From: Candidatus Micrarchaeota archaeon
GTDB taxonomy: Archaea > Micrarchaeota > Micrarchaeia > Anstonellales > Anstonellaceae
NCBI GenBank assembly: GCA_026413765.1
Contig: JAOAKI010000001.1
Coordinates: 73,085 to 137,084 of the forward strand
Direction of reading: 5' to 3'
Length of the DNA: 64,000 bases
A program made the position numbers and the translations under genes. Within the stretch, counting starts at the first letter, position 1. The number at the start of each line of letters is the position of its first letter. This document shows, piece by piece, positions 43,732-60,255 of this stretch. Under the pieces are notes generated by a model. It was not told the origin of the DNA, did no database searches, and worked only from the letters and a program-made list of their open reading frames with translations.

Positions 43732-44763
43732 TTAAATTATCTTAATCAACCCTCTGCCTATCTCTGCCAAATCTGCGCCAAGCAGAGAGCTTGTCTGCCT
43801 TATGAATGTGAAAGTGATTATAAGAGACACAAGCGGGTAAAACATTGCCTGAAGAAATATTATCCCCACCGAGGCAATAATATAGTCGATCTGATCCGAA
43901 ATCCACGTCACCAACCCTGCGCCTTCTGCGCTGCTTTGTGTGGCTTTGCTGTTCAATTTATAGTATATCTCAAATTGATTGCCAGCATCGGTAAAGCAGG
44001 GCTCCTCTGAGCTTAGTTGCTGGATTGTCTGGGATGCTTGTATGTTCTCAATCTCTCTGCACATGTCAGATGAGGAAGGCATTATTGAGATTATCATCAC
44101 ATAGCTTAGCGGAAAGACAAACGCAAATCCAAGCGCAAAAGCCGTTACGAATCCCCCAATTCCGCGTGTAAGTGGGAAAGAGCGAAGTACCAATCCGATT
44201 GGCAAGAATGGGTAAAGCATGGTGTAGTGGGCAAAATGCAAAAGGTAATATTGGATATAGTGAAATAAGATCAAATATATCATGTTATTTGCAATATAGT
44301 GAAATACTGCGACATATCCTGTCAGTGCGAATCCTCCTGATATTGGCTCGAGCCCACGGATATCATAAGTAAGAGTGCTCCACGGTTCAACCCACGCATT
44401 TAGTGTGTATGCAAGAGTATACACATTGATTTGGCATCTAATGACCACAAGAATATATGCTTTTCCTATCTCGCTTGGCGGAAGAAGCGTGTTTGGCGGG
44501 ACAGTTGAAGCCAGATGAAGGTTCCCTGAAGCTGCCGCAATACTTGTTGCAAGAGGCGCAAAAAGGTTAGTGTTCAGTAGCTGAATCGTGGCTGCAACCA
44601 TGATTATAAGGAAAGTAACAAACACTTGGACATACTCTCCTTTAACCCACATTCTCAGGTTCTGCAGATTAAAGGCGTTCGCAACCATGTGCAAAATAAT
44701 TGCTATGAAAAGGGAAATGAACCCAACAATCAAAGAAATTTCCACCCACATGTCCATCTTCAA
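43732..44763 (-). CDS. Multi-pass membrane protein, paralog 6 of 6 (CedA/VirB6-like)
   Basis: Shared motifs WVKGEYVQ, GLVLRSFPLTRGIGG..FPL and C-terminal FIRQTSSLLG. Confidence 0.6.
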   Translation of the reverse strand: MKMDMWVEISLIVGFISLFIAIILHMVANAFNLQNLRMWVKGEYVQVFVTFLIIMVAATIQLLNTNLFAPLATSIAAASGNLHLASTVPPNTLLPPSEIGKAYILVVIRCQINVYTLAYTLNAWVEPWSTLTYDIRGLEPISGGFALTGYVAVFHYIANNMIYLILFHYIQYYLLHFAHYTMLYPFLPIGLVLRSFPLTRGIGGFVTAFALGFAFVFPLSYVMIISIMPSSSDMCREIENIQASQTIQQLSSEEPCFTDAGNQFEIYYKLNSKATQSSAEGAGLVTWISDQIDYIIASVGIIFLQAMFYPLVSLIITFTFIRQTSSLLGADLAEIGRGLIKII

Positions 44764-45833
44764 ATCAGCCTCGTAAGGTTTGTCACATCTATTTCTTCTC
44801 CTAAGAAATGCGTAATGCCTCTTGTCAATTCTACCAACACTATGAAATTAATCACAGGCAGAGCCACTGCTGCAATCATATACACCAAAACTGGCTGCAG
44901 TAAAATAAATACCCCGCTGGTTGCATTCTCCACAAGTTTATTGCGAGTCTGTAAAGTTGCCGGATCTGAAGGGTCCAGCTCCTTTATATTCCGCTGAAAA
45001 TCGTTTGGAGTCGGAAGCTGGTAGTTGTTCGGATCGGCTTTGCTGTTCGCAGCGCCAACTTGCTGCGTTATTTCTTGCTCAGCTGCCTCAACTCTGTGCC
45101 ATACTATATAGTCATTAAATACTATCATTAACGGATAAAAGAAAAACAAAGCAATAGTAAGTCCGATCAATGTTCCGCCAAGCGGCCTTGTCGGCTCAAA
45201 TGCCCTAAGAAATATTCCGAAAGGATAAAGGAAAAACAGCCCAGCAATCGCCATGTATTCCACTATCCTCATTTGCAGCTGCAGCATAAGAAATGAGGTG
45301 ACATAGCCGCCAAGCATCAAAAACATCAAACCTGTTATTTGGCTAAATGTCTGCAATGGAGTGCTAGTTGAGCCAACCGCAAGTGGATTGGATGCCCAAG
45401 TGGAATTTGCTATTAAATTGACGATTTTTACCACAAAATTCATATAATAGAATATCAAATAACCCAACTCCTCAATCTGCTTGAAATACCTGTCAACTAT
45501 GGCCTCCATTTTCATTCCCTGCGGATATCTTGCAGAGTCAAGAAAACTCATGTCGAAATTGCAAAAGCCATAAATCCAGATTATGCTGAAGCCAATAATT
45601 ATCGTCGTTCCAAAAATCTGAAAAAGTTCGAATTTTGTCCATGCTTCAAGCATCTGGTTGCGCAACGCTTGGGAAACCATATACAAAAACACAAGAATAA
45701 ACAAAGATGCAAACAATGCTGCGAAAGTAAGCTCTAGCCATCCACTCCCAAGAATCCCAAACGAGACTGGTACAACGGGTGCGCTTCCACCCATGCCTAG
45801 TGCATTGCACACAGCTTCTCCAAATGTCATCAA
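44760..45833 (-). CDS. Multi-pass membrane protein, paralog 5 of 6 (CedA/VirB6-like)
   Basis: AWTKFELFQ, GIFLRAFEPTRPLGGTLI..YPL, FLGEEIDVTNLTRLI. Confidence 0.6.
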   Translation of the reverse strand: MMTFGEAVCNALGMGGSAPVVPVSFGILGSGWLELTFAALFASLFILVFLYMVSQALRNQMLEAWTKFELFQIFGTTIIIGFSIIWIYGFCNFDMSFLDSARYPQGMKMEAIVDRYFKQIEELGYLIFYYMNFVVKIVNLIANSTWASNPLAVGSTSTPLQTFSQITGLMFLMLGGYVTSFLMLQLQMRIVEYMAIAGLFFLYPFGIFLRAFEPTRPLGGTLIGLTIALFFFYPLMIVFNDYIVWHRVEAAEQEITQQVGAANSKADPNNYQLPTPNDFQRNIKELDPSDPATLQTRNKLVENATSGVFILLQPVLVYMIAAVALPVINFIVLVELTRGITHFLGEEIDVTNLTRLI

Positions 45834-47170
45834 ATCAACTTCTCAAGCGAGCTTAAGTCTATTTCTGTTCCAAGCACTTTGGCAATCTCTTTCGCAAAAG
45901 TGATCGTTATGAAGACATTGAATATCGGAAGCAGAATGCTTACTATAAATACAAAATATATCGTCTGATATAAAGCGTGCATTGCAAACGAAGTGGCAGG
46001 GATTATGAATACGACTGCCAACAGGTTGAGGTTGAGGAACTTGAGGATAAAGTATGTTGCAACAGTTATCCCGATTGTTTTTGCAACCGACCAAAACTCC
46101 CCAGTCGCAGGCCCTGTCAATGCATTGACAAATTGGGCATATACTTTTCCTAGCACAGTGTTGAATATGCAGCTTGCGCCAGTACTTATAGTGGGGTTTG
46201 AAAATATCCTGACAACCAGTGGCCCCTTGTTTATTTCCTCAACCAAAAGCCTCCCTTCTATTGTCGATGTATCGCCATTTGGAATGTATGGCCGAGGATC
46301 ATCCAAACTTGCAGGGTATGCGTTTCCAAGGCAGCAAATCGGCCGGTCTAAGCAGTTGATCCAAAGCCCGGAAGAGCTTGTTCCGCTGACAGTCTTGATT
46401 TCTCCCTCTATATAGCGGGAAATGATTTCACCACCTTGCACGATCAAAAACGGGTAGACAAAATAAAGAGAAAGCGAAACGCCTATCAGGGCGTTGCCTC
46501 CACCTTTTATCCCTAGCGCTCTAAGAAAGAGGCCAGCGTTGAGCAATATCGGCAAAGCACTATCTGCAATAAAGCAAAGCATATACTCATGGGCAAACCA
46601 GCTTATTATCGCAGTCGTAATCAATTGCATCAAGAGCCCCAAAGTGTCATATATCGGCTTGAATGCTGGCGCAACTTGGAAAGTGACATAGATTCCCAGT
46701 TGTTTTCCAAATAGCCTTGCATAGGGGGTTACGCTTGTGTGCAGAGAAAGCAAAGTTGTTGCCCCAAGCATCATTCCAAAATCAGCAATCATTGTGTTCC
46801 TGATTATCACCGCATATGCTCTTGCGGTTTCCAAGTTCGTCTGAGCAAATGGCTGGAAAATGGCAACAATTAAAACAAAGATCCCAACAAGAAGCGCGTT
46901 TTCGGCAAGCTCCCAAACTCCTGCCTTTGCAAAATCGCGTACTTTCTGCCCTAAAAGGCCACCCAAAATATGCGTCAAGCTATTTATTGACACGCCAAGC
47001 GCGATTGCTGCAACCGAAAGCGCCGCCCATCCAAGGTCTTGCGCTGGACGTCTATTGCACATTACTACTTTCAGGTCAGAATCTACAAACAGTGGATTTT
47101 GCCATATCCAGGCAAATCCTTTTTCCATCAAAAACAACAATATTAACGCAGCGATTATTTTTTTCATCAT
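45830..47170 (-). CDS. Multi-pass membrane protein, paralog 4 of 6 (CedA/VirB6-like)
   Basis: Signal peptide, DFAKAGVWE, GLFLRALG..GGNALI..YPF, VLGTEIDLSSLEKLI. Confidence 0.6.
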   Translation of the reverse strand: MMKKIIAALILLFLMEKGFAWIWQNPLFVDSDLKVVMCNRRPAQDLGWAALSVAAIALGVSINSLTHILGGLLGQKVRDFAKAGVWELAENALLVGIFVLIVAIFQPFAQTNLETARAYAVIIRNTMIADFGMMLGATTLLSLHTSVTPYARLFGKQLGIYVTFQVAPAFKPIYDTLGLLMQLITTAIISWFAHEYMLCFIADSALPILLNAGLFLRALGIKGGGNALIGVSLSLYFVYPFLIVQGGEIISRYIEGEIKTVSGTSSSGLWINCLDRPICCLGNAYPASLDDPRPYIPNGDTSTIEGRLLVEEINKGPLVVRIFSNPTISTGASCIFNTVLGKVYAQFVNALTGPATGEFWSVAKTIGITVATYFILKFLNLNLLAVVFIIPATSFAMHALYQTIYFVFIVSILLPIFNVFITITFAKEIAKVLGTEIDLSSLEKLI

Positions 47171-48459
47171 ATCAACCTTGACAGAACAGAAATTTCAACA
47201 TCTCCTCCTATTAGCGGAGAAAAATACTTCACACTTGCAAGCATCGTCATAAGACCCAAAAACGGAACCACAAGAGAAAATATTAGCAACGAAGCAAGCA
47301 TACCTATTGGCCCTTTTGGTCCAAATCCGCTTGATGGTGCCCCACTGCTAATATAGCCCAAAAAGTCTTTGTACCATGAAGTCCCTTCATACTTTTTCCA
47401 TATCGCAATGAATGCGCTTCCTAAATTCTCCATCTCATTAATCTGGCTTTGAGAGCGCGTATCATTGCACACATCTATCTGAAGCTTTTTTGCAGGATTA
47501 AACACCTCTTTTGCATCGCTTGATGAGCCGTAGTCCACGCTTCCGCCGCTGAAAGGCAAGGTCGCACCCTTGCTTTCGTCATATTTGAACCCAAAGACTC
47601 TTCCTCCGGTGTTCCAATTTGCGCCATCCATAAACCCAAAAAGTATTGCATTGGCAGCGACATAAAACATTGGCATTACTATATAAGCCGAAAGCGCAAG
47701 GGCAATAAGCAGGCCGCCAAGTTTTCTCGTGAAATACAATATCCTTAATATCAATCCCATCGAAATCATAACCGGAAATAGCGCGTACCATAAGTAATCC
47801 AAAAATATTTGCTGAGCCCTCGCCAACATCATCAATTTCACCGAAAGCTCAAAGACAATCGAGAAGAAATCAGCAGCCAGCGCCAAGAAGGCAAAAGGCG
47901 ACAAATTCAGGTTCCCTTGCCTTTCATCAAACAGTGATGTCCCGCTAAAAGAAAGATTTGACAAAAATCCATAAAGCCAATAATGCTTCAGGGCAGTTAT
48001 TGCATTCATTCTTGCTGTCTCGTATAAAGTTTGGAGATAGTCGGTTGCAAGCTCGATATGGCATGCTCTTCTTTTTGCAAACGGGCAGTTGGCGCCAGTG
48101 CAGCAAACAGTGTTTACATAAGTGTTCCACTGACCCGTCCTGTCATCGCTTAAGTAACTGAGGCTCATAAGCCAAGAGTCTAAAACCTCCACAAGCGCGA
48201 CAGCAAAGATAAGTATCAGCACAGAAAGGAAAGCCTGCCCCACTTCCTTCTTTGTCCAGGCTTTCAGCTTCTCGTCGTTTGTCAGAGTAGCCACCATATA
48301 AGATATCGACAGCAGAAACACAACTGCCAAAAGCGCCACTCCAGCAAGCATTTCCCAACCCCATACCCACACGCTTCTTGAGGACGAGGTGCTAGTTGCT
48401 CCGCTGCAGCCAAATGCAAGAAAAAGCACGGTTAACAAAATCGCACTAGCCGTTTTCAT
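47167..48459 (-). CDS. Multi-pass membrane protein with lipobox, paralog 3 of 6 (CedA/VirB6-like)
   Basis: LAFGC lipobox, AWTKKEVGQ, GLILRILYFTRKLGGLLIA..MPM, LIGGDVEISVLSRLI. Confidence 0.6.
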   Translation of the reverse strand: MKTASAILLTVLFLAFGCSGATSTSSSRSVWVWGWEMLAGVALLAVVFLLSISYMVATLTNDEKLKAWTKKEVGQAFLSVLILIFAVALVEVLDSWLMSLSYLSDDRTGQWNTYVNTVCCTGANCPFAKRRACHIELATDYLQTLYETARMNAITALKHYWLYGFLSNLSFSGTSLFDERQGNLNLSPFAFLALAADFFSIVFELSVKLMMLARAQQIFLDYLWYALFPVMISMGLILRILYFTRKLGGLLIALALSAYIVMPMFYVAANAILFGFMDGANWNTGGRVFGFKYDESKGATLPFSGGSVDYGSSSDAKEVFNPAKKLQIDVCNDTRSQSQINEMENLGSAFIAIWKKYEGTSWYKDFLGYISSGAPSSGFGPKGPIGMLASLLIFSLVVPFLGLMTMLASVKYFSPLIGGDVEISVLSRLI

Positions 48460-48461
48460 AC

Positions 48462-49379
48462 TTACCCCAGCTTTTGTCCAATGAACTTTGTAAAGCTTCT
48501 AATGAATGCTATTGTGAGTGTCATTGATAGCGCAGGCAAAAACAGAGCCTGCAATAGAAGGTAAGATAAAGTAAGCAGCGGGTCAAACAGGATGCTTTCT
48601 AGGCTGAAAAATTTCGAGTAGCTAACTTCTGCCATAAAGTTCGGATATTGTTGTGCGAGTCTTTCTTCGAACTGTTGACTGCTGGCTTGCTTGAATGTTT
48701 TTTCCATCATTTTTGGCACGATATAAGCATGCATTGCATAACTGTACGGAAAAAGTATTCCAAATCCAATAGCAACTGATATCAGAAATGCGCTTGCATC
48801 TCGCAATGGCGGGAATATCCTTGTCAATACCGCAGCAGGCAGCAGAAACGGAATCAATACTGCCTGAATCGCCTCCAAAATTAGCTGCTGAACCATCAAG
48901 CTTGCAGTAAACGGGACAATTATTATCGATAAAAAGTCAAATATTCTCTCAAACAATACAGCAGAAGGGAATGTTAGATTTATTGTCCCCCACGCTGCTG
49001 GCCCCCATCTCATTGACCAAGCCGCATGGTACTGAAAACGCAATACTGCTGCTTTCATCGATGCAGCAGTTATCAACATTTTCTGGTTGATAAATGTCAG
49101 GTACTCTTTGCCTATTTCGTATGGATCTCTTCCGGTCAATAATTCGGTCATTTCAGCTGCAAAACACGTTGCGCCAAATATGCTGATAAACAGGAAAGCA
49201 GAAACCGCAAGCTGATAAAGTTCAATCGAGCTGAATGCCTCATACTCAGGTCTTCTAAAAAAGTTTGCAGCCATGTAAGATATTATCACTACACTTATCA
49301 TTGTAGCAAGCGCCATGCCCGCGGTAGAATAAATCACATTGTATAAAAACGCATCATTTGCGCATAATGCCATCTTCAC
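48462..49379 (-). CDS. Multi-pass membrane protein, paralog 2 of 6 (CedA/VirB6-like)
   Basis: AFSSIELYQ, LTRIFPPLRDASAFLI..FPY, FIRSFTKFIG. Confidence 0.58.
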   Translation of the reverse strand: MKMALCANDAFLYNVIYSTAGMALATMISVVIISYMAANFFRRPEYEAFSSIELYQLAVSAFLFISIFGATCFAAEMTELLTGRDPYEIGKEYLTFINQKMLITAASMKAAVLRFQYHAAWSMRWGPAAWGTINLTFPSAVLFERIFDFLSIIIVPFTASLMVQQLILEAIQAVLIPFLLPAAVLTRIFPPLRDASAFLISVAIGFGILFPYSYAMHAYIVPKMMEKTFKQASSQQFEERLAQQYPNFMAEVSYSKFFSLESILFDPLLTLSYLLLQALFLPALSMTLTIAFIRSFTKFIGQKLG

Positions 49380-50773
49380 ACCAGCTTGCTTATTCCAAAT
49401 ACCCTTGGTTCGCCTCCTATCAAAATCGCAAAATCTTTCAGGAGCGTCATTGTAATGATAATCTCGATTACTAAAAACAACATCGACATAATTGTAAATT
49501 GCATTGCATCCATAATTAATATCTCTATCTCCTTGAACATTGCCACAGATGCTGCAGGTGGCAGCGGAAATGCAAAAAGCAAGATATTCCTTCCTATACT
49601 CTGCATCCTCCTTGCAAGCTCATTTTTTGCATCTTCCATCATTTTCTCGGTTTTTGTCCATTTCTCATTGCTGGCGCTTCCACCGCCATAGACCTCCAAG
49701 AATACTCTATCATGGGTTTGGGCAGCCTGTTTTAGCGCTTCGTTGATTTCATCAGCACTCTTTCCATAGCACAAAGAGAAAATAGAAGAGTATTCTCTAA
49801 AGTCAGTCAGTGGCGTAGTGCAAACTTTGCTGCCTCCTTGCTCATACCTGCAATTTCTTGAACAGCACTCATCATCACTTGTGCAAGGCTGGCCATTTGT
49901 AAGACAGGCTGGGCCCCCAGGCTGCGGCATCGGATTAGCAATCATTTCCCATATTTGTTGATTTATGAGTATGCTGATCGGGTAAATGAAATATCCTGCA
50001 AACGCCACCGCAAGTATTGTAGAGCCTGTTTTTCTTGTAAATGGGAATGCTCGCAAAATAAGCCCGATCGGCATAAACACAGTAAGAGCGTTCTCCTCAA
50101 TAAAGGTAAGCAATATTTTTTGTGCCATTATGCTGCCTAGTGCTGCGCCAACAACATCAACAAGCAGGGTGTGAATGTCGGATATTGGCACCATCGCAAT
50201 CCAAGGGGCAATACCAAAAGACACATCAATAAAGGGATAAATGATAGGCATTCTCAATCCGGTAGAAAGGCCAGAAAGAAGACCAATTACAACCTCAGTC
50301 ATCATTAGTGACATATAGCCAAATGTCAATTTTCGCATTATGACGCCATCAGCCCCAATAATCATGAATGGAGGGGTAGAGGAGGTTATGATGCCTGGTC
50401 TGCAGCCAAGAAAATAATCAGCATGGCCATATGCGATGTTTCCGTTTCTCCATCTTCCATTCTCAAATGGCCCATGCTTTATCTTCCACTCTTCGCAAAC
50501 TTGAGTTGGCGGAACTCCGCTTAGCATGAAGCCTTCGGCAACCTTGTCAAATACGCTTCCAGGAGTGGCCAAGACATAAACTATCAGCAATATGATTGCG
50601 CTTACAGCAAGCTCGCCAGTCTCTGCTTTTGCGAACGCCTTTATTGATGAATTAGACAATGCCTCCCCAACAATAAAAGATAAAGACACAATTGCCACGC
50701 CAATAGCAAACGCAATCCCTATCATCTGCCAAGGCCAGCCAGCAACTACTACTTGAAGCAAATATTCTATCAT
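49376..50773 (-). CDS. Multi-pass membrane protein with Cys-knot loop, paralog 1 of 6 (CedA/VirB6-like)
   Basis: AFAKAETGE, GLILRAFPFTRKTGSTIL..YPI, LIGGEPRVFGISKLV; loop CLTNGQPCTSDDECCSRNC...C. Confidence 0.6.
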   Translation of the reverse strand: MIEYLLQVVVAGWPWQMIGIAFAIGVAIVSLSFIVGEALSNSSIKAFAKAETGELAVSAIILLIVYVLATPGSVFDKVAEGFMLSGVPPTQVCEEWKIKHGPFENGRWRNGNIAYGHADYFLGCRPGIITSSTPPFMIIGADGVIMRKLTFGYMSLMMTEVVIGLLSGLSTGLRMPIIYPFIDVSFGIAPWIAMVPISDIHTLLVDVVGAALGSIMAQKILLTFIEENALTVFMPIGLILRAFPFTRKTGSTILAVAFAGYFIYPISILINQQIWEMIANPMPQPGGPACLTNGQPCTSDDECCSRNCRYEQGGSKVCTTPLTDFREYSSIFSLCYGKSADEINEALKQAAQTHDRVFLEVYGGGSASNEKWTKTEKMMEDAKNELARRMQSIGRNILLFAFPLPPAASVAMFKEIEILIMDAMQFTIMSMLFLVIEIIITMTLLKDFAILIGGEPRVFGISKLV

Positions 50774-50853: not shown

Positions 50854-53800
50854 ATGGCGACAAAGAGCACTCATGCATTTCTAATTATAATTTTTATATT
50901 GTCTGCCTTTGTTCAATGCTCTTTTTCGTTCGAAGTCGTCAGCGAAGGCAAAGACAAGACTTTCATTGAGCTTTCAGTTGAAAATAAAACAGTCATCGCA
51001 AAGATTTCTTACTACAATCTCAGCTATTACAGCAAGCAAATGCCGCAAAACTACCCGAATATAGACCAACGACTTGGGACACTGCCACCCGAATTCTTCC
51101 AGCCCCCCTCTCGCCCTTATTCAGAAGAGTTTTTCAGGGTCAAGAGGGAAAACCTTTCTAATGCTTCCATTTATTTTGTTGTGCTCTACAATGGTCAGCA
51201 ACTGAATATAACAGACGAAAATGGCAACGAAAAATGCTCCCCTGCTCCAAAAACAGACGAAGCAGGGAAGACAAACTGCACTGTCACTCACTTCCTTTTT
51301 GGTGGTCAGGTTAAGGAGGTTGATTCTGAAAAAAGCTGCATACTAGTAAAAGCGTCATTCCTTGGCGAGCAGATAGACAAGAAAACCTATAAGCCAAGCT
51401 CTCAGACAGTAATTCTCTGCCCAAAGCCATCTGCCTCTGCTCTTTCACGATTTGGCAGCAGCTTGGCTCTAATACTTTCATCAAACAATCTCTTCATCAA
51501 CAGCTTATGCTTCCCATTAGCCTTGCTTTTATCTTTACTGATTGCTGCAATGTATTATGCTGGAAGAAACCCGCTTTCTCTTTTCGACTTGACTACTCCA
51601 AAACTCCCGCACTTGCGCTCATTCAAGATGAAGTCAAAGGCTTCTCCTCAGATGATGAGGTCAGTAGCAAGAAAATATGCCCAACTACAAGTGAGGGCAG
51701 CAAAAAGCGCATCTAAAGCCTTAGCCGAAGTCATAAGAGTGAGAGGAAAATATGAAGGCAAAAGAAAAGAAGAGATACTGCTTGAAGTCTTAAAAGCAAA
51801 AGCCAAAGTTCACCACCTCTTTCATGACTTGAAGCATTCAATAGAGGCTTCAAAGGGCAAAGGCCTTACGGATGCCCAAATTCGCAACTTTGAGAGGCGA
51901 CTTGCCGCTCTTTTTGGCACAGCTCCAGAAGGAAGAAGGGCATTCAAAATCTGGAAAAAAAATGTGGAGATGACACTGCCATTCATCCAGCTTTACAACG
52001 CTGCATACCAGACCTATTCGATGACTGCAAGCGGTCGTGGGCTTTCAAATTCACTGGTATCAAGGGCAATTGTTACACCACTTTTCAATAAGTTGACAAA
52101 GGTCAGCGTTTACTTGGAGGAATTGAAAGGAATAAGGGCAATAGGTAAAATCCCAATAGTCAAGAACGTAATCAACACGCCAACGCGTATATTTGATGCA
52201 ATTGCCCAGCACCGCTCCTCTCGTTTGGGCGCGCTTAATTTGAGGAGGGAATTAATAGGTGGCGCGGTTTACACCATCCTCAATAGGCTCAACATGGTGG
52301 ACAAAGCAAAAAACTTCATGCAAAAGTCAGGAATAGAAGCGTTCTTCAAATGGACACATAAGTGGAGTTTTGACAGCTTTGTTGCCAAGCACGATTTGTA
52401 TAACCGAAAATTCAGGGAACTTTACGACCCTGTGGAAAATGTCCGAAAGCTCTCAATTGACGCATACAATATTGCATACCACGACCTTCTAAGAAAGCTC
52501 ACCTTTTCGCTTCCGACTAAAATGACGATGGGCGAGATTCTTGTTTCCATGCAAAATTCTATAAAAGACAAAAAAAGAAACGATCAACTCAAAGATGATT
52601 TTAGAAAATTGATCGATGCTTTGGAGAACAATCGGAATATCAACCTTGATACTGTTTTGAAGATCGCGCGTGAGCTTAAACTTTCAGAAAAAGACGTCTC
52701 TTTTATAAGGAGAGTAGTTGAGCTGCAAGATCAGTGGGGCAAGATCCAGCAGGCGCTTGAGGCGATAATGAATAAGCCATACGAAAGCCACTATTACAGA
52801 TTGAAAGCACTCTATGATTTAGCAGTCAAGTACGGTATTGATTTAAAATTGGGTGAGGATCTCAATAAATGGAAGGACTACGAGGAAAATGTGATTAGGA
52901 AAATAATGCTTGCCCGGATGGAAAACGGCACCTATAAGCCAATCACATGGGCTGATGTCCGAAATGAGTTTAGAAGTGGCGCATCGACTCGTGACATTCA
53001 AACCAAATTCGGTGGTATTGTCTCAAAAGCAGAATACGAAAGGAGGATGCTTGAGCTGCGCAACAGGGTTCTCTCCTCCACAGATGCAAAAACCTTAAAG
53101 GACAATACAATCGGCACAATCCTCACTATCAGAGACAGCATCAATGCCAAAATAAATTCCACAGGTCCAACCACCCTTTTTTCCCATATCTATGCAGATG
53201 CGCTAGGCTCAAATCCCACGGCATTCTACTTGAACAGGCGCCTTGCTGAGTTAGGGCTTGGTGACATCAAAGTCAAGAACTTGGACGAATTTGAGATCTT
53301 TTTCTTCCGAGGGACGATGTCAGAGTCATTGCGCAGGCGCCTTGAGAGGATCGCTGCGGATAATAAGCGAACGGTGGATGACCTGCTTAAGGATATCATG
53401 GTTGAGGCCTTAAGGTTCCAAGTCTCTGCAAATATTGCAAATATCAGGATTGCTGAGCTGATTTTTGGAGACACAGCTTCCCGCAAGAGCGTCTTTTCGG
53501 ACATCTTCGGTAGCCGAGCAGAGAAACAGATGAAAGGGATGATTAAACTTCACGAGCAACTCGAATATTCATTTCAGAGGATATCGTTCAATTATTCACC
53601 TTATGATTTGCAGAAAGAGGCACTGTTCAACCAATTGAGGGTTTCTGAGCGGTCGGCAGGTTTCTTCATCTGGGGCACCAAACGCGGCGGCAGCAATGCA
53701 GACAGCGTGATGTGGCTTTTGGATTCGACCTTCAAGCACAATGCTGATGCAGTCGGCATGTTGAGAGCCTTCTACAACAATCTCATCAACCGCGAAAGCA

Positions 53801-56457
53801 GATTCTATGACGAAAAATTTGCGCAAAAGATAAAAGAAGGCGATTTTGTTTCAAACTATGATGCACTTCGCGCAAGGGGATATAACTTTTTGGATGTCCG
53901 GAACGGCCTTGGCATCCTGCTGAGAGGCGACAAGAAAGGTAATCTGCCTTTGTTGGAATATGACCCGACCATACTTTCTCAATATCGTTACAATTCCGAA
54001 ATCGTAAAGAAAGGCGAAGTGCGAGACCTTGGGGCACTGTTTGCAAGGATAGCAGACTCTCCTTACGTTTATTTGCCTTCAGGTGTGGTGGTGCTTTCAA
54101 AATTCACAGATTCATCTGGCAGGATCAGCTGGTTATACGGTGCGCCTCTGAAATCCAAAGAAGTGGAAAGAGTGTACAGAGAGGCGCTGCAAGACCCCAC
54201 TTTCAGCCGAACTTCTGAACTATCCAACAAGCTTGTAGGTTTTGATAAAGACGGCAACTACCGTCCGTCTACCCAACTTATCAAAGTGATCTACGCAAAA
54301 GACTTGCAGGAGATCAAAAACAATCCAGACAATTTCTTTGGATATGTTTCACCCTTTGAAAAATTCAGGAGCAGGATACGTACTGGGCTTCACAAACTTG
54401 GGGAGCTGTTTGGCGAGATGTATTATTCTGCGACCGACTACCGTGCATCACAGCTTGAAAAATGGTATGCTGCCCAATATCAGATGCGCATGATTCTTGA
54501 TTCTTATGAGCGCTCTTTTGCCCGTTACATGACGCCTGGCACCAAAAGATATGATCCGTCATCTTATATTGAGGATTTGAAATCAGAGGGCCTCAAAACA
54601 AATGACCAGCTGCGCATTCGCGTAGCAAACACAATGGAGAAATTGAAAAGAGGGGAAGGGGGCTGGCTTGACACATTGCGCGCCACTTTTGATGGCTTTA
54701 GAAGAAATCTTGCTGCCAAAATAGTCAACGAAGTTGCCGAGGCGGAATCTGCCTGGTATGCCGCAAAGCTTGAGCTGAGGGCAATCGAGAAGCTGAAAAA
54801 TGAAGGGGCAATTACAAAAGATGAATATAAGACTCTAAGAGAAGAAGCACTCTCTAAGATCAGCGGCCTTAAAGAGTCGTACAAAGAGCTAAAAGAAGAG
54901 TACAAGCAATACAACGAACTGGCGCGCTATTGGGCAAGCAGCCACGACAACACTTACGGAACCGCAAGAAACATTTTCAAGGTTCTGCCCGTCTTTACCT
55001 CAATTTTTGACAGCAAATTTGTTCAAGGTGCAAAAATAGATTATTATTTCATTACCGAATCAAGCGCAATGAGGGATCCGCGCACAGCGACAGGCGCAGG
55101 CGTTGGACTTGACTATTCGTTTTATGTCGGTTACCAAACCGGTCAGACGGTCTATGAAAGGCCAAGATTCTGGACGACAAACGCATTGTGGGAAGAGCAG
55201 CTTCGCCTTCCACTTATGTTGTCTTATGCTGTCCACAAATGGTTCTATCCTGCAGTAAGCCAGGCGACACGCGACAGAAGCCACTATCCTTCCTATCTTG
55301 AGATGGATGCTTTGTATCCAGGCAGGCCGCATAATGAAAGCCGACTCGGAAAGCATGATCTGTTCATGCCGATGGTCTTGGCTCCTCTAAGAAGGCATTA
55401 CAGCTCAGATTATTGGAGAACGCGCTTCCAAGCTCTGCTTGATTTTTCAGGCGCATCCTCACTAATAGGGGCGTATTTTTCAACCTCTCCTTCTCAGACC
55501 GAGGCTTCTTTCTTTAGAAGAACAATGGAAAAAATGTTCTTGCCAAGTCCGCACTATTCAACTGAAGCGCGATTCTTGCTTTCTCAGAGGACATTAGACC
55601 AGTTCAAGATGCTTGATGAAGCAAGAGAAAAATATTCAGAAGTAAAAGAGGCAATCGATACATACATCAACTCAATTGATGGCTCTGAAGCACAAAGGAA
55701 AGCTTTAGAAACCATATCTAAATATGTAGAGATTTCGGACCGAAGGCCAATTGGCGTCCAGCGTGGAGTTTCAGGTTCGGATATGGAGGAAGATGGCTCG
55801 CGGAATCGTTTCATGAACCTTTATGTTGGCTTCCACCAAAACATCTGGAAGCCAACCGTTCCAGGGTTGATGGATACTGATCCGATCAGCGGCAAATGGA
55901 GGGCATTCCCGCAGACCGCTATGGAAGTCTACCGGGCTCCAGAAGAAAGCAAGCTTGACAATCTAAGGCAATTCAACCTGCCAACTTATGATGAAAAGAC
56001 TGGCCGGTTTGTCTTGACTGAGCAGCTTCACAATTATGATGACGCAATGCGGGAGGTATACAAGCGCGAAAGTACTCTTTTGATTCATTTGCTGAAGTAC
56101 CAGCACGAGCTGCAAAGCTATACAATCCTCAACAGCCCAGCTGTTCTTGTCGCATCGCCTGGCATTGGTTCAGCTCTTGCATTCAACATTAGCAGATTTT
56201 TCCTAAGCAAGACTCGGCTCGGCTCTTCGATTACTGAAGAGGAAGCTTCATTCTCCGAGCGATTTTTCACCCAGAGTTGGTACAGTTCTATTGCAAAAAG
56301 ATGGGCATTAGCTAAAAACTCTTGGAATGAATTATTAGAAAGCACGTTAATCTCTCGTTTATCTGGCGCTTCAAGGAAAAGCAGGCTAGAGGAAGATGCC
56401 TTAAAACTTGCTATTTACAGCTATAGCAATCTGTCTTCGAGAGGGTATCTATTATGA
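50854..56457 (+). CDS. Giant (1867 aa) single-pass membrane protein of unknown function
   Basis: Signal peptide, ~170-aa Cys-containing beta-rich exodomain, TM helix CFPLALLLSLLIAAMYY, then ~1600 aa of charged, mostly helical sequence with no recognised motif. Confidence 0.8.
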   Translation: MATKSTHAFLIIIFILSAFVQCSFSFEVVSEGKDKTFIELSVENKTVIAKISYYNLSYYSKQMPQNYPNIDQRLGTLPPEFFQPPSRPYSEEFFRVKRENLSNASIYFVVLYNGQQLNITDENGNEKCSPAPKTDEAGKTNCTVTHFLFGGQVKEVDSEKSCILVKASFLGEQIDKKTYKPSSQTVILCPKPSASALSRFGSSLALILSSNNLFINSLCFPLALLLSLLIAAMYYAGRNPLSLFDLTTPKLPHLRSFKMKSKASPQMMRSVARKYAQLQVRAAKSASKALAEVIRVRGKYEGKRKEEILLEVLKAKAKVHHLFHDLKHSIEASKGKGLTDAQIRNFERRLAALFGTAPEGRRAFKIWKKNVEMTLPFIQLYNAAYQTYSMTASGRGLSNSLVSRAIVTPLFNKLTKVSVYLEELKGIRAIGKIPIVKNVINTPTRIFDAIAQHRSSRLGALNLRRELIGGAVYTILNRLNMVDKAKNFMQKSGIEAFFKWTHKWSFDSFVAKHDLYNRKFRELYDPVENVRKLSIDAYNIAYHDLLRKLTFSLPTKMTMGEILVSMQNSIKDKKRNDQLKDDFRKLIDALENNRNINLDTVLKIARELKLSEKDVSFIRRVVELQDQWGKIQQALEAIMNKPYESHYYRLKALYDLAVKYGIDLKLGEDLNKWKDYEENVIRKIMLARMENGTYKPITWADVRNEFRSGASTRDIQTKFGGIVSKAEYERRMLELRNRVLSSTDAKTLKDNTIGTILTIRDSINAKINSTGPTTLFSHIYADALGSNPTAFYLNRRLAELGLGDIKVKNLDEFEIFFFRGTMSESLRRRLERIAADNKRTVDDLLKDIMVEALRFQVSANIANIRIAELIFGDTASRKSVFSDIFGSRAEKQMKGMIKLHEQLEYSFQRISFNYSPYDLQKEALFNQLRVSERSAGFFIWGTKRGGSNADSVMWLLDSTFKHNADAVGMLRAFYNNLINRESRFYDEKFAQKIKEGDFVSNYDALRARGYNFLDVRNGLGILLRGDKKGNLPLLEYDPTILSQYRYNSEIVKKGEVRDLGALFARIADSPYVYLPSGVVVLSKFTDSSGRISWLYGAPLKSKEVERVYREALQDPTFSRTSELSNKLVGFDKDGNYRPSTQLIKVIYAKDLQEIKNNPDNFFGYVSPFEKFRSRIRTGLHKLGELFGEMYYSATDYRASQLEKWYAAQYQMRMILDSYERSFARYMTPGTKRYDPSSYIEDLKSEGLKTNDQLRIRVANTMEKLKRGEGGWLDTLRATFDGFRRNLAAKIVNEVAEAESAWYAAKLELRAIEKLKNEGAITKDEYKTLREEALSKISGLKESYKELKEEYKQYNELARYWASSHDNTYGTARNIFKVLPVFTSIFDSKFVQGAKIDYYFITESSAMRDPRTATGAGVGLDYSFYVGYQTGQTVYERPRFWTTNALWEEQLRLPLMLSYAVHKWFYPAVSQATRDRSHYPSYLEMDALYPGRPHNESRLGKHDLFMPMVLAPLRRHYSSDYWRTRFQALLDFSGASSLIGAYFSTSPSQTEASFFRRTMEKMFLPSPHYSTEARFLLSQRTLDQFKMLDEAREKYSEVKEAIDTYINSIDGSEAQRKALETISKYVEISDRRPIGVQRGVSGSDMEEDGSRNRFMNLYVGFHQNIWKPTVPGLMDTDPISGKWRAFPQTAMEVYRAPEESKLDNLRQFNLPTYDEKTGRFVLTEQLHNYDDAMREVYKRESTLLIHLLKYQHELQSYTILNSPAVLVASPGIGSALAFNISRFFLSKTRLGSSITEEEASFSERFFTQSWYSSIAKRWALAKNSWNELLESTLISRLSGASRKSRLEEDALKLAIYSYSNLSSRGYLL

Positions 56458-58661
56458 GGCTACTGCTTGCGATTGCTGTGCTTTTTTTCTTTTTTGGCTG
56501 CACTCTCAACGTTCCTGCTTCCGAAAAATTTGCAGCCTCCACTCTTGCAGTCGGCAGGTTTTCGCCTGCAGATGAGATGGTCTGTCAGCCACTCAATGAC
56601 TCAAGGCCTTGCTACTGCATGGTCTGCGAAAACAAGACAACTTGGTCATCCATCTTCCCTGAAAAGATGCGCAAGCTTATGGCTTTTTTCGATTCGACTT
56701 TGCACAAGGGTAATTGCACCTTTATGCACTGCAATATGACTGATTTTGTCAACATCATAAGCGAAAAAGAGCGCTATCAGATGCGCTCATTCATGCTCGG
56801 AATCGGTCCCTCCGCAAGCGCGGTTGATAACGCAAATCTTTTCTGCAATTATTCTCTCCAGCTTTCTTTCAAATGGCTGAAAGGCTCTGTGTTTAATAGC
56901 CCAGAGATCCCAAGCCCGCGATCAGCAAAATGCTGGCTCGAGCGAAATATCCTCCCAGTCTACCTATATTACACCGAAGGCAAAAACATCGACGTATGGA
57001 GGACTGCCCAGATTGCGCAAGCATTCAATGATGTTGGGCCGGTGCTTCTTTCCACCGAAGTCTGGTTCGATCCAAATGATCCTCAAGCAATCGAAGGCAT
57101 CAAAGGACAAATTGACGCAATAAAAGCAAATTGCAACAGCTGTCTCGTCGTTCTCATGCTGAACGGATCAATCCAAGATCGAAAGCTTGTCTTAGAGAAA
57201 ATATTCGGTAGAGGGGACATAAAGACTGGAGCAGGATTCAGCCCATATTACCAGAAAGTAGATGTTGTCGGATTTGGTTTTCTTGCAAACGATTATCCAA
57301 CCTGCAATCCAGTTGACGTCATTGGGGAGAACTTTCTTTTTTCAAGATTTGTTTTGAAAAAATACTCGAAGCCGACTCTTTGGGCGTATGTAGGAGTAAG
57401 TAAAGGAAATAATAGTTTTGGCACATGCAGCTGGGATGAAGAGGCAGTGCATAACTTTTATCAGCAGCTTTTTGCAAGCATCCAAGCAATGTCAAGCTCA
57501 GGGATTATTGGCGTCGGCTTCTATGAGTTTTCAGACTATGCAGGCCCACTTCCTTGCGACAACAAAATTCAGGGATGCGAGTTTGGCCTTTTGGATTCTT
57601 TTGGAAACCAAAAGCACCCAGCAATCAACACATGGTCTTCCCTTTGCCAGTATTTTGGCACTGTGCAGTTCAGAAGCCCGCTTATCTTTTCAAGAAATGG
57701 CTACGGCTCGGTTTGCGACCCTATGCAACTGCAGAATAACAAGATGTTTACAGCGATTTCTTTTGAACTAAATAGCGGAAAGCCTCTGCCAAATTCTATT
57801 GTTCCTACAGCCCCAAAAGAAAAATATCTTCGCTGTAGCGACATTTGTGTTTCCGACGTGCCGCTGAATGATTGGCAGATTTTCGACAACACTGGAGACA
57901 CATTCGATTCTGCCCATTGCGATCTCTACCCATTCATAGAGGAATTAGCAGAAGAAAAAGAAATCAGCGCCTTGTTTTTCAGAGCAATAGTTGAGCAGGA
58001 AAGCAACTTCAACCCATACGCAGTTTCTTGCATAGACCAAAATTCGCCAAATTGCAATCCTGCAAACCTTTCTATTGCAGAGATTTGCCGGCTGGCAAAC
58101 CTTTCTGATGACTGCGGCCAAGTGGTAGGCGGAGGCAGCTCCTGTCCGGCAGGCATGAAGCCGTGTGCATTTGGCATTGCGCAATGCATTGCTTACCCCG
58201 GCAAATATTATGTCCAGCGCGGGATTGACCTTCCGCTTGAAATCCGAAATTGCGGAAAAAGCAAGAAAGGCATAGATTACAATCCATTTGATCCGCAGGA
58301 TAGTGTTTGCTGCGGAACTTCTGTTTTGAAATATTATCTGGACATTTCACCATCAGCAGGCAGAAACTTTGTCCAAAACAACTGGAACACGCTTACTTCC
58401 TGCCCGCAAGGCATCAAAGATGACAAGGAGTGGGTAGCTTATTTCTTGGCTGCTAACACCTATTATGGCTATCCTAATGATTTTTCAGGCTTCCTATCTC
58501 AGCTTAACAATTGTCAAGGCCAACAAAATTACATTTCCTATCTGAGAAGCAAGGGATACTCCTATGCAGCACGTGTACTTTCCCGCTACCTTGACGCTAT
58601 AGACAAGTGCGGCTCGGATTGCCCTGGAAAAGCCGTACAGATAGCCTCCAATCCTCCTTAA
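56454..58661 (+). CDS. Cys-rich lipoprotein with glycoside-hydrolase-like barrel and C-terminal lytic transglycosylase (SLT)-like domain
   Basis: FFFGC lipobox. KPTLW...GIIGVGFYEF...FGLLDSFGNQKHPA is a clan GH-A-like end. RAIVEQESNFNPYAVS, AFGIAQ and NPFDP..SVCCGT..L are SLT motifs. Confidence 0.7.
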   Translation: MRLLLAIAVLFFFFGCTLNVPASEKFAASTLAVGRFSPADEMVCQPLNDSRPCYCMVCENKTTWSSIFPEKMRKLMAFFDSTLHKGNCTFMHCNMTDFVNIISEKERYQMRSFMLGIGPSASAVDNANLFCNYSLQLSFKWLKGSVFNSPEIPSPRSAKCWLERNILPVYLYYTEGKNIDVWRTAQIAQAFNDVGPVLLSTEVWFDPNDPQAIEGIKGQIDAIKANCNSCLVVLMLNGSIQDRKLVLEKIFGRGDIKTGAGFSPYYQKVDVVGFGFLANDYPTCNPVDVIGENFLFSRFVLKKYSKPTLWAYVGVSKGNNSFGTCSWDEEAVHNFYQQLFASIQAMSSSGIIGVGFYEFSDYAGPLPCDNKIQGCEFGLLDSFGNQKHPAINTWSSLCQYFGTVQFRSPLIFSRNGYGSVCDPMQLQNNKMFTAISFELNSGKPLPNSIVPTAPKEKYLRCSDICVSDVPLNDWQIFDNTGDTFDSAHCDLYPFIEELAEEKEISALFFRAIVEQESNFNPYAVSCIDQNSPNCNPANLSIAEICRLANLSDDCGQVVGGGSSCPAGMKPCAFGIAQCIAYPGKYYVQRGIDLPLEIRNCGKSKKGIDYNPFDPQDSVCCGTSVLKYYLDISPSAGRNFVQNNWNTLTSCPQGIKDDKEWVAYFLAANTYYGYPNDFSGFLSQLNNCQGQQNYISYLRSKGYSYAARVLSRYLDAIDKCGSDCPGKAVQIASNPP

Positions 58662-59464: not shown

Positions 59465-59803
59465 TCAACTTTTGCCCCGCTCCTCCTCTGCCTTCTGCCC
59501 GGCTTTAAAGATCGTGCCTGAAGAAACAATCGGTTCCATTCTTGCTTTTTTGCTGCTCCATTCGGTCAAGCAGGCCATGCAAAAAATCGCTTCAGCATGT
59601 CTGTCTTTATGGCAGCGGATGATGCCTCTACCATTTTGGTAATTTATAATTTTGAAACCCAACCCAGAAAATCCAAGCTCTCCAAAAAAAGAAAGGAAAT
59701 GCCGATATATCAAATTTTTTGCCGCCTCTTCGGTAGGCGGCTGACCGTCCACTGACAGCCTGAAAGCAATATACCTTTTCTTGAACGCACCAATCACCTT
59801 CAT
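59465..59803 (-). CDS. rnp2: Ribonuclease P protein component 2 (Pop5)
   Basis: KKRYIAF, FFGELG, GIIRC, SGTI.KA; follows Rpp30 and eL15. Confidence 0.88.
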   Translation of the reverse strand: MKVIGAFKKRYIAFRLSVDGQPPTEEAAKNLIYRHFLSFFGELGFSGLGFKIINYQNGRGIIRCHKDRHAEAIFCMACLTEWSSKKARMEPIVSSGTIFKAGQKAEEERGKS

Positions 59804-60255
59804 TTTCTTGCACCGCAAAGCTCCTCTATCGATTTTTTTGAGGCTTCGATTTCGTTGGGTCTCAACCCAACCACCTTCATGAAAGACTCGATCTCTTTTG
59901 CATTTCTGAGCATGTTGGGCTCTTGTGCAAGAGTAGCAAACACCATCCTGCAGCCAGTCCTTCTGCACATCTCAACCAAAATCTTCATTTTTGAAAGGAC
60001 AATCCCGCGCCTTATTCCTTTCTGATATGCTACGTCTGAAAACGAAAGCAACACCGCACTGCCTAAACTTGCAAGCTTTTTGAGCTCGCCTTCCTTAAAT
60101 TCGTAGCTCTCCCTATAAAAAATCGCCTTTCTTTTTTTTTCGATCGCTTGGTTTTTGTCGCAGAAGTTTTTCAAGCGGCTTGATGATATTAGCTGTTTTA
60201 TGCCTAAAGGCGGCTCTAGCCCATCTGCACAAACAATGTCAAGCATCCAGTTCAC
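59800..60255 (-). CDS. rnp3: Ribonuclease P protein component 3 (Rpp30), short and divergent
   Basis: Lies between eL15 and Pop5; C-terminal FATLA....LRNAKEI......GL matches the Rpp30 pattern. Confidence 0.72.
   Translation of the reverse strand: MNWMLDIVCADGLEPPLGIKQLISSSRLKNFCDKNQAIEKKRKAIFYRESYEFKEGELKKLASLGSAVLLSFSDVAYQKGIRRGIVLSKMKILVEMCRRTGCRMVFATLAQEPNMLRNAKEIESFMKVVGLRPNEIEASKKSIEELCGARK

Follow-up and report, generated by a model that had tools for sequence, protein, structure and literature searches.

In the 64,000-nt stretch of archaeal DNA analysed here (the window), we identified a gene whose product is probably a lytic transglycosylase that is tethered to the cell surface and attacks murein of foreign, bacterial origin. 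The uninterrupted open reading frame (56454..58661, + strand, as for all features below unless stated otherwise), supported by its homologues, encodes a Cys-rich lipoprotein of 735 aa, in which a barrel resembling clan GH-A is followed by an SLT/GH23 domain. In a Micrarchaeota (DPANN) archaeon with a genome of 840 kb, the product would, as we propose, be a disulfide-rich enzyme that is tethered to the membrane outside the cytoplasm and cleaves glycans. The C-terminal domain would be the catalytic part, with Glu516 of its ES motif as the single general acid/base; by extension from the family-1 lytic transglycosylases, it would cut the beta-1,4 MurNAc-GlcNAc bond in peptidoglycan strands without water, leaving 1,6-anhydro-MurNAc. 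The substrate would be the wall of a contacted bacterium, as prey, host or food source.

The assignment to an archaeon, made in an earlier sequence-only reading, agrees with the neighbouring archaeal genes in the window (fibrillarin, ribosomal protein L15e, RNase P Rpp14/p30) and with the closest named homologues, which come from Candidatus Anstonellaceae and Micrarchaeota. The strings quoted in that reading, RAIVEQESNFNPYAVS, AFGIAQ, NPFDP and FGLLDSFGNQKHPA, are all found in the 735-aa protein. A recent mobile-element origin was rejected, because the neighbours are housekeeping genes and the GC content of the cluster (0.42–0.46) is unremarkable compared with 0.42–0.48 elsewhere. The archaeon may be an inhabitant of hot springs; one DNA run labelled as a hot springs metagenome is possibly its source.

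The SLT/GH23 lysozyme-like domain (residues ~461–728, 57834..58637) is indicated by Pfam, by the predicted model and by fold matches. The profile search with PF01464 proposed in the sequence-only reading yielded a match above threshold for residues 495–662 (24.5 bits versus a gathering cut-off of 21.3, E 2.2e-5). The ES motif (Glu516-Ser517, codons GAA AGC, 57999..58004) lies within RAIVEQESNFNPYAVS (residues 510–525, nt 57981–58028), at the end of a helix predicted for residues 506–517. Glu516 is kept in 127 and Ser517 in 115 of 141 cluster representatives, each of at least 600 aa, which are the basis of all residue counts given here. The motif is followed by a Cys-rich insert (residues 526–571, 58029..58166) with Cys at positions 526, 534, 545, 554, 564 and 571 (C534, C554 and C571 conserved in at least 113/141), by AFGIAQ (residues 572–577, 58167..58184; family consensus C-A-x-G-L-M-Q; G574 137/141, Q577 119/141), by NPFDP (residues 610–614; N610 120/141, P611 132/141, F612 123/141) and by the late positions Y670 (123/141), G672 (119/141) and Y712 (131/141). 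The consensus of the family can be written as ES...CAxGLMQ...NPF...YxG; motifs typical of SLT domains include, besides ES, G-L-M-Q, a later motif resembling A-Y-N-x-G and a C-terminal Tyr. Since the Pfam score is above the cut-off and the motif residues are conserved in the 141 representatives, we regard the match as more than chance. Pfam SLT was also detected in 14 of 17 close homologues at E<=10, and at E<=0.001 in 7 of the 50 longest members of the family (best 7.7e-9). Against our interpretation stands the fact that the score exceeds the threshold by only 3 bits and that no individual PDB sequence match is significant (best E 0.1–0.3). PDB sequence searches with the single sequence or with the profile of alignment A1 found nothing, and those with the A2 and A4 profiles gave no more than non-significant matches to transglycosylases (E 0.1–0.5); the best A2 hit was DslA (E 0.32). 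In HMMER alignments E516-S517 falls on the ES motifs of MltC, EtgA and DslA, with E-values that alone are not significant; the invariance of E516 in alignment A4 is a product of row choice and is not counted as evidence.

In the full-length model the SLT domain has a pLDDT of ~85–95. A domain-only model (residues 455–735, 8 sequences) was worse than the same region of the full model (pLDDT 54.9), and we took its fold matches with caution for this reason. They were led by MltC in the VIA search (Z 8.1, a level that according to the tool a common arrangement can produce; rmsd 4.4, 151 residues aligned), followed by MltE (7.6), Slt (7.5) and MltF (7.4), with all of the best 12 rows from the GH23/lysozyme superfamily. 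The first 15 Foldseek rows are MltE or MltC (probability 0.97 to 0.51, E 0.028 or weaker). The profile match, the conserved motifs and these predicted folds agree with the earlier proposals of an SLT domain with an intact catalytic Glu and of a lysozyme-like fold. Like the bacterial family-1 lytic transglycosylases (E. coli MltC, MltE and Slt70; P. aeruginosa MltF and Slt; PF01464, GH23), the protein would have this fold, one catalytic Glu in an ES motif, a motif of GLMQ type and, further on, Tyr/Gly motifs; a lipid anchor is also present in MltC and MltE. It differs from them in its archaeal host without murein of its own, in the insert of ~45 residues between ES and GxxQ, in the ~18 Cys of its SLT domain, in the fusion to a GH-A-like barrel, and in a sequence likeness too low for any significant PDB chain.

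With respect to the type of reaction, no acidic column (>=55%) was found between positions 516 and 546 among the 141 representatives, and D528 varies in alignment A1. The lack of a conserved second carboxylate after the ES motif would, as far as sequence conservation goes, fit a lytic transglycosylase better than a hydrolytic lysozyme. The contrast case is DslA (Bd0314, PDB 6TA9), the GH23-like lysozyme of the bacterial predator Bdellovibrio bacteriovorus, a cell that attacks the walls of other cells, for which a catalytic pair E143/E154 is described (PMC7511926). As presented there, DslA is likewise a diverged, disulfide-stabilised GH23-like domain with an ES motif (VIA Z 4.5 to our domain-only model), but it has a second catalytic Glu (E154) and is a hydrolase, whereas the lipoprotein family has no conserved second acid at this place.

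The region preceding the SLT domain (residues ~111–413, 56784..57692) was predicted to form a (beta/alpha)8 barrel of clan GH-A type, with alternating strands and helices in the full-length model. The best 50 VIA matches of this model are clan GH-A barrels without exception (50/50, Z 13.3–15.5), the top one being GH53 6gp5_A (Z 15.5, rmsd 3.4, 235 residues aligned), and Foldseek matched GH2, GH53, GH5 and GH26 (E ~1e-5). Sequence identity to the matched GH-A chains is 6–14%, and for residues 1–490 neither a Pfam or NCBIfam family nor a PDB sequence was matched. As the GH-A criterion we used a conserved catalytic Glu pair, with the acid/base following strand 4 and the nucleophile following strand 7. 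With the clan GH-A endo-glycanases (GH53 galactanase, GH5, GH10, GH26, GH2) the lipoprotein barrel shares the overall fold and a Glu after a central strand, Glu202 (codon 57057–57059), which is kept in 130/141 representatives and is the sole conserved acid of the barrel. Unlike them, it has no conserved nucleophile Glu and no sequence family, and it carries extra Cys-rich elements. The candidates for a second Glu are E358 (32/141) and position 317 (Glu in 33/141), with strands numbered according to their DSSP order; column 240 is Asp in 95/141. Because the canonical Glu pair is not conserved, the term "glycoside hydrolase" applies to the fold only, so that the glycoside-hydrolase-like barrel announced in the sequence-only reading is supported as a fold, and any catalysis by it would be putative. 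The string FGLLDSFGNQKHPA (residues 377–390), regarded there as typical of GH-A, falls into a segment modelled with pLDDT <50 (residues 358–406) and is not what identifies the barrel. A barrel with Glu202 as its one conserved acid most likely binds the glycan or adds a second, non-canonical activity; if active, this GH-A-like fold without a sequence family would be a candidate new CAZy family. The linker to the SLT domain (residues 414–460, 57693..57833) is poorly modelled (pLDDT <50 at 423–459).

At the N-terminus, MRLLLAIAVLFFFFGC, a hydrophobic segment (residues 3–21) belongs to a signal peptide (56454..56501) that ends in a lipobox-like FFGC, with a small residue followed by Cys at the cleavage site (Cys16, codon 56499–56501). 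G15 and C16 are kept in 123 and 127 of the 141 representatives, a conservation that speaks for the lipoprotein nature suggested earlier. By the lipobox Cys at the end of the Sec-type signal peptide, the mature protein would probably be anchored in the cell membrane, on its outer side; we know of no archaeal lipidation machinery. Further along lies a Cys-rich N-terminal segment (residues 44–110, 56583..56783) with conserved N-x-T sequons at N60 and N94, in which C58, N60, C88 and N94 are invariant in alignment A1. The abundance of cysteines pointed out in the sequence-only reading was confirmed by counting: Cys accounts for 34 of the 735 residues (4.6%), and ~25 of these 34 do not vary in alignment A1, whereas the adjacent giant protein has 6 in 1,867 residues. 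There are also 9 N-x-S/T sequons; the 34 Cys and the conserved N-x-T sequons are consistent with an extracellular location.

The ATG of the lipoprotein gene overlaps the TGA of the upstream open reading frame for this giant protein (50854..56457) as ATGA. Its topology comprises a signal peptide, a Cys-containing ectodomain of ~190 aa, one TM segment (213–231), after which MYYxGxxPLSLFDxTxPxLP is invariant, and a Cys-free C-terminal part of ~1,630 aa. The giant gene was found in 39 of 41 relatives. Of the 35 genomes with a lipoprotein gene, 29 have the giant gene next to it, as read from coordinates; 14 loci of named genomes likewise show a giant open frame immediately upstream, and in one further locus this frame is split in two. 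We propose that the lipoprotein is co-produced with, and probably acts beside, this single-pass membrane protein. On the other side of the giant gene lies a divergent array (43732..50773, - strand) of six polytopic membrane proteins (4–7 TM in a TM scan), which are paralogous (pairwise blastp E 1e-11 to 1e-5) and possibly belong to the same system as the lipoprotein and the giant gene; in the relatives, too, the nearest polytopic copy adjoins the giant gene. Neither the giant protein nor the six polytopic proteins matched any Pfam, NCBIfam or PDB entry, and the Atlas gave no usable match for the giant protein. The same genome contains a second cluster, with a paralogue of the giant gene and a Cys-rich lipoprotein of 1,366 aa that is weakly similar to the barrel (blastp E 0.008).

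As to the substrate, the archaeon's own genome, which is rated 100% complete, yielded no FtsW/RodA, PBP transpeptidase, GT51 or MurG, in agreement with the earlier statement that archaea lack bacterial peptidoglycan. Because the organism is without murein polymerisation genes, the substrate would be foreign. Among the 50 longest of the 141 family representatives, to which the domain survey extended, six have a Peptidase_M23 domain (best E 4.9e-24), and the genome also encodes an MltB-like SLT_2 protein (110 bits) and an Amidase_3 (69 bits); the M23 fusions and these two genes point to murein as the target. Against this target speaks that, for the use of anhydro-muropeptides, the genome gave neither an Amidase_2 nor an AnmK match above threshold. 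It also counts against a bacterial target that, to our knowledge, all cultivated DPANN archaea live on other archaea and none of them on a bacterial host.

The family comprises 218 cluster representatives at E<=1e-3 among 1.84 billion. Homologues are present in 35 of the 41 related genomes and in 100 of 251 across the phylum, with counts of 46/46 in family f8, 19/21 in f1, 0/65 in f13 and 0/47 in f14. This near-universal occurrence of an apparently single-copy gene, syntenic in the order and placed in the core chromosome among housekeeping genes, is also what one would see if the enzyme remodelled a non-murein glycan, namely a surface polysaccharide or N-glycan coat belonging either to the archaeon itself or to an archaeal host, in a housekeeping role rather than as an anti-bacterial weapon. 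We consider this unlikely. SLT_2 (10/41) and Amidase_3 (6/41) are patchy in the relatives, where the lipoprotein is near-universal, a pattern equally compatible with housekeeping work on a glycan of the cell itself. The adjoining polytopic family is phylum-wide (216/251 genomes, ~14 matches per genome), the second cluster repeats the pairing of a giant protein with a Cys-rich lipoprotein, a GH23 chitinase and a g-type lysozyme appear among the VIA fold matches, and the barrel has no known family. The M23 fusions and the SLT_2 and Amidase_3 genes argue against such a role, as do the 112 genomes of f13 and f14, in which the lipoprotein was not found but the polytopic family is kept (60/65 and 44/47), so that the lipoprotein is not integral to the polytopic system. 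Moreover, we know of no self polymer with beta-1,4-linked N-acetyl-hexosamines in Micrarchaeota. Pseudomurein, whose backbone is beta-1,3-linked and lysozyme-resistant, was set aside as a target on grounds of this chemistry.

The missing nucleophile of the barrel, the marginal SLT score and the loss of Glu516 in 14 of the 141 representatives (replaced by D in seven, N in three, and S, R, H and T in one each) would suit a non-catalytic adhesin, in which two degenerate enzyme folds served as lectin-like modules that bind a partner glycan without cutting it. This is very improbable in our view, as the retention of Glu516, Ser517 and the other active-site motifs in most members is unexpected for a pure binding module, and the protein of the window itself has the full set. 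Least probable of all is a "space-making" transglycosylase, comparable to VirB1 or EtgA, of a Ced-like or type-IV-secretion-like machine made of the polytopic paralogues and the giant protein: specialised transglycosylases do accompany bacterial envelope machines, EtgA turned up among the weak matches by sequence and by fold, and the polytopic protein adjoining the giant gene gave an Atlas match at rank 17 (0.85) to a cluster in which 23% of the members carry CedA1, to be taken as a lead only, but a Walker A motif is absent from the giant protein and an ATPase from the locus, HerA/AAA_10-type matches being elsewhere in the genome. As in VirB1 and EtgA loci, a small SLT domain is encoded beside genes for membrane proteins; in contrast to them, no secretion ATPase, pilin or other machine component was recognised here, the neighbours being unnamed membrane proteins or housekeeping genes.

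The preferred reading, a transglycosylase directed at bacterial murein, hints that bacteria serve this archaeon and its relatives as targets of attack or as food. More speculatively, and in our opinion doubtful, the lipoprotein could be the wall-breaching tip of a hitherto undescribed Micrarchaeota contact apparatus, in which the giant protein, with its ~1,630-aa cytoplasmic part, would hold the lipoprotein at the surface and the polytopic arrays would form the membrane part, so that gain of the lipoprotein let Anstonellales-type lineages pierce murein. If true, this would be the first DPANN clade with bacteria, not archaea, as obligate partners or prey. Earlier claims that DPANN target bacteria rest on scattered SLT annotations; to these we add a defined SLT family that is order-wide in Micrarchaeota, predicted to be surface-anchored, sometimes fused to M23, and locked to the gene for a giant membrane protein. 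The lipoprotein is a clonable candidate for probing whether these archaea breach bacterial walls, and its gene could serve as a marker for selecting enrichment cultures and imaging partners.

SLT-domain proteins of DPANN, including Micrarchaeota, are already published: large extracellular ones in Woesearchaeota and Pacearchaeota (fam00969; Castelle et al. 2021, PMC8204110) and, for three Micrarchaeota genomes, what is called a "lytic murein transglycosylase" (Chen et al. 2018, PMC5864196). Both accounts interpret murein-type transglycosylase domains as a sign of interaction with bacteria. We found no published account of the architecture of the present lipoprotein, of its order-wide conservation or of its gene partner. 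Going by the descriptions, the Woesearchaeota and Pacearchaeota proteins are lineage-specific and reach up to 3,000 aa (PMC8204110), and the Micrarchaeota lipoprotein is set apart from them by its ~750 aa, its barrel domain, its fixed giant gene partner and its order-wide distribution. The three genes of Chen et al., as described, may belong either to the family of the lipoprotein or to the MltB-like SLT_2 type (PMC5864196).

The open reading frame at 56454..58661 (+) encodes a 735-residue protein composed of an N-terminal barrel and a C-terminal SLT (GH23) domain. A sequence-only reading had described it as an archaeal lipoprotein in which a lytic transglycosylase domain is fused to a glycoside-hydrolase-like barrel. 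Our analysis confirmed the observation and supports the interpretation: all strings quoted in that reading are present in the protein (RAIVEQESNFNPYAVS, residues 510–525; AFGIAQ, 572–577; NPFDP, 610–614; FGLLDSFGNQKHPA, 377–390), and the protein is a well-delimited archaeal SLT protein of a new variant form, with a function predicted from sequence. The archaeal origin is borne out by the window, since it holds genes for fibrillarin, ribosomal protein L15e, the RNase P subunits Rpp14 and p30, SecD/SecF and AdoMet decarboxylase (SMC, PEP synthase, glutamine synthetase, diphthamide synthase and RtcB are also encoded), and by the nearest named homologues of the lipoprotein, which come from "Candidatus Anstonellaceae archaeon" (66% identity) and other Micrarchaeota. 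The assembly comprises 840,152 bases and is rated 100% complete; the single public sequencing run that contains this stretch is labelled as a hot springs metagenome. The two RNase P frames as listed (59465..60255, minus strand; Rpp14/Pop5 59465..59968, p30 59800..60255) overlap by 169 bases; the Pfam match of Rpp14 does not start before residue 65, so that its true start codon probably lies downstream of the listed one.

The HMM search proposed in the sequence-only reading matched Pfam SLT (PF01464) to residues 495–662 above the gathering cut-off, albeit by a small margin (24.5 vs 21.3 bits, E 2.2e-5), and we therefore tested the domain against the whole lipoprotein family. HMMER, run in full against 1.84 billion cluster representatives, identified 218 relatives at E<=1e-3, the top 150 of which were listed; the alignment comprised 141 proteins with a length of 600 aa or more and left out 22 shorter ones. 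The expected SLT pattern and its catalytic Glu are intact in the window protein, in which the latter is E516 (Glu in 127 of the 141 representatives; otherwise D in 7, N in 3, and S, R, H and T in one each). Conservation extends to S517 (115/141), G574 (137/141), Q577 (119/141), N610 (120/141), P611 (132/141), F612 (123/141), Y670 (123/141), G672 (119/141) and Y712 (131/141). The family consensus reads ES.F...CAxGLMQ...NPF, and hence AFGIAQ in the window protein is the classical GLMQ motif in variant form. The ES and GxxQ motifs are set apart by a Cys-rich insert, about 45 residues long (526–571).

In the full-length AlphaFold model (17-sequence alignment, mean pLDDT 72.9, pTM 0.70) the SLT domain reaches a pLDDT of about 85–95, and E516 lies at the end of helix 506–517. 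Because matches to the N-terminal barrel crowded the fold searches done with the complete model, residues 455–735 were folded separately; this model, from 8 sequences, is poor (pLDDT 54.9). With it, the first 15 Foldseek rows were MltE or MltC (best E 0.028, probability up to 0.97; no match at 1e-3), and the first 12 VIA rows all belonged to the GH23/lysozyme superfamily: MltC (Z score 8.1, rmsd 4.4, 151 aligned), MltE (7.6), Slt (7.5), MltF (7.4) and Slt70 (6.2), with g-type lysozyme, GH23 chitinase, Tse3 and phiKZ gp144 in lower rows. Lytic transglycosylases are thus the best fold matches of this poor model, in line with the sequence-only reading. Sequence profile searches of the PDB matched transglycosylases alone, on the ES motif (DslA, MltC, EtgA), at non-significant E-values of 0.1–0.5. 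In the lysozyme superfamily, a second carboxylate is described as separating hydrolytic lysozymes such as DslA from lytic transglycosylases with a single Glu (PMC7511926). DslA has E143 and E154, whereas in the alignments of the 17 close homologues and of the 141 representatives of the lipoprotein family no second acid is conserved after the ES motif.

The N-terminal barrel proposed in the sequence-only reading proved to be GH-A-like in fold, although it belongs to no described sequence family in Pfam or NCBIfam and the canonical glutamate pair is not evident. Strands and helices alternate from about residue 111 to 413 of the AlphaFold model; Foldseek matched GH2 beta-glucuronidases, GH53 galactanases, GH5 and GH26 (E ~1e-5), and all 50 matches listed by the VIA all-against-all comparison were clan GH-A barrels (Z 13.3–15.5; top match GH53 6gp5_A, rmsd 3.4, 235 residues aligned). 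It is this evidence that identifies the fold, and not FGLLDSFGNQKHPA, which had been taken as diagnostic of GH-A but falls in a segment (358–406) modelled at pLDDT <50. Among candidate acidic residues, E202, directly after strand 198–200, is Glu in 130 of the 141 representatives; E358 is invariant in the 17 close homologues but Glu in only 32/141, and position 317 has Glu in 33/141. Only two further acidic columns lie close to a strand end: D270 (124/141), at a strand's N-terminal end, and column 240, which is Asp in 95/141 but Ile in the window protein (D242 is close by). With strands numbered from the model, no canonical GH-A glutamate pair emerges across the 141 representatives, and the barrel may serve in glycan binding or possess an unusual catalytic arrangement.

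The protein starts with a signal peptide, MRLLLAIAVLFFFFGC, with a terminal lipobox-like G-C, conserved across the representatives (G15 in 123/141, C16 in 127/141), as expected of a predicted lipoprotein. The Cys richness noted earlier is substantiated by 34 cysteines (4.6%), vs 6 in the 1,867 residues of the giant protein encoded upstream. About 25 cysteines are invariant in the 17 close homologues, as are N60 and N94, each part of an N-x-T sequon (nine sequons in total). The signal, the cysteines and the sequons fit a lipid-anchored, disulfide-bonded and glycosylated surface protein.

The start codon of the lipoprotein gene overlaps the stop codon of the upstream gene (50854..56457, +) as ATGA. 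The latter encodes a giant protein of 1,867 aa with a signal peptide, an ectodomain of about 190 residues that holds four invariant Cys, a single TM segment (213–231), followed by an invariant MYYxGxxPLSLFDxTxPxLP motif, and a C-terminal part of about 1,630 residues that lacks Cys, all six cysteines being within the first 219 residues. A Walker A motif is absent from it, and Pfam, NCBIfam, PDB and Atlas gave no match. The juxtamembrane motif is common to at least one giant paralogue per genome. Among 41 genomes from the genus, family and order to which the window belongs, the giant protein is present in 39 and the lipoprotein in 35 (19 of the 21 high-quality ones), and the two genes adjoin, as read from coordinates, in 29 of these 35. 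Twenty-two loci come from named species genomes, all with Micrarchaeota, Micrarchaeia or Anstonellaceae titles bar "Woesearchaeota UBA10216" and "uncultured archaeon LFW-35"; in 14 of them a giant open frame (1,670–2,230 codons) runs up to the lipoprotein gene, in one more it is in two pieces, and in the remaining 7 the upstream sequence is too short to judge.

Divergently transcribed from the giant gene are six tandem paralogous polytopic membrane proteins (43732..50773, minus strand; 305–465 aa, 4–7 predicted TM segments), without a Pfam or NCBIfam family. Their family, with about 14 matches per genome of ~1 Mb, stays beside the giant gene in relatives. A phylum-wide profile search of 251 genomes (completeness >=80%) found the lipoprotein in 100: almost every genome of the window's order has it (e.g. 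family f8 46/46, f1 19/21, f9 9/10), several other families contain it as well, and the two largest of the families covered, f13 (0/65) and f14 (0/47), gave no match. The polytopic family is phylum-wide (216/251, a tally that takes in two unpublished genomes, G061 and G219), including f13 (60/65) and f14 (44/47), so that the lipoprotein represents an addition, restricted to certain lineages, to a more widespread membrane system. The SecD and SecF genes (40822..43676, minus strand) follow the array immediately downstream, in the same orientation, and a weak Atlas lead (0.85) connects a polytopic protein with CedA1-containing clusters.

As to the substrate, self murein is ruled out within the limits of these searches, since neither FtsW/RodA, PBP transpeptidase, GT51 transglycosylase nor MurG turned up in the own genome (G000, rated complete), which has a single Mur-ligase-type gene. 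Three observations point to bacterial murein. A Peptidase_M23 domain occurs at the C-terminus of 6 among the 50 longest representatives of the family (best E 4.9e-24; 55.7 bits at residues 837–944 of family member P0062); the window's own genome encodes a canonical MltB-like SLT_2 protein (312 aa, Pfam SLT_2 E 1.6e-31; L010:817-1755, G000:C3, just downstream of a DnaK gene); and it encodes an Amidase_3 (N-acetylmuramoyl-L-alanine amidase) domain (G000:C3:135590-136384, 69 bits). Against a murein target count the patchy occurrence of these accessory enzymes in relatives (SLT_2 10/41, Amidase_3 6/41), the absence of any AnmK hit above threshold and of any Amidase_2 hit, and the fact that GH23 includes chitinases as well. 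In members from other genomes, P0062, P0086, P0106 and P0162, M23 is fused to barrel and SLT domain, and Glu516 is replaced in two of the four (by N and D); P0006 shows a sub-threshold GDSL/SGNH match in place of M23.

The idea of a DPANN transglycosylase is already in print and is not new. Large SLT-domain proteins (fam00969, up to 3,000 aa) are presented by Castelle et al. 2021 (PMC8204110) as specific to Woese-/Pacearchaeota, with reference to prior notes from Rinke 2013 and Castelle 2015; Chen et al. 2018 (PMC5864196) mention three Micrarchaeota genomes with a lytic murein transglycosylase, which they interpret as a means of attacking bacteria; Vigneron et al. 2022 reported GH23 in Woesearchaeota, and a 2024 oxygen-deficient-zone study reported it in three DPANN MAGs. 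In the papers on Anstonellales and Micrarchaeota evolution (PMC8561730, PMC12892359), term searches turned up no passage on transglycosylase, peptidoglycan or lysozyme; the former mentions GH23 once, for another order, and "glycoside hydrolase" was not found in the latter. Full-text searches on Micrarchaeota and transglycosylase yielded no account of the architecture, the family's conservation or the partner gene, which supplementary tables might list.

A second cluster of the same kind is present in the same genome (locus L034, G000:C14:18000-34117), with no Pfam family for any member. It encodes a giant paralogue of 1,612 aa, a Cys-rich lipoprotein of 1,366 aa (FGC lipobox, 66 Cys) weakly similar to the barrel (blastp E 0.008), a 700-aa protein with 73 Cys, and polytopic paralogues, two of which have Cys-rich ectodomains (21–57 Cys).
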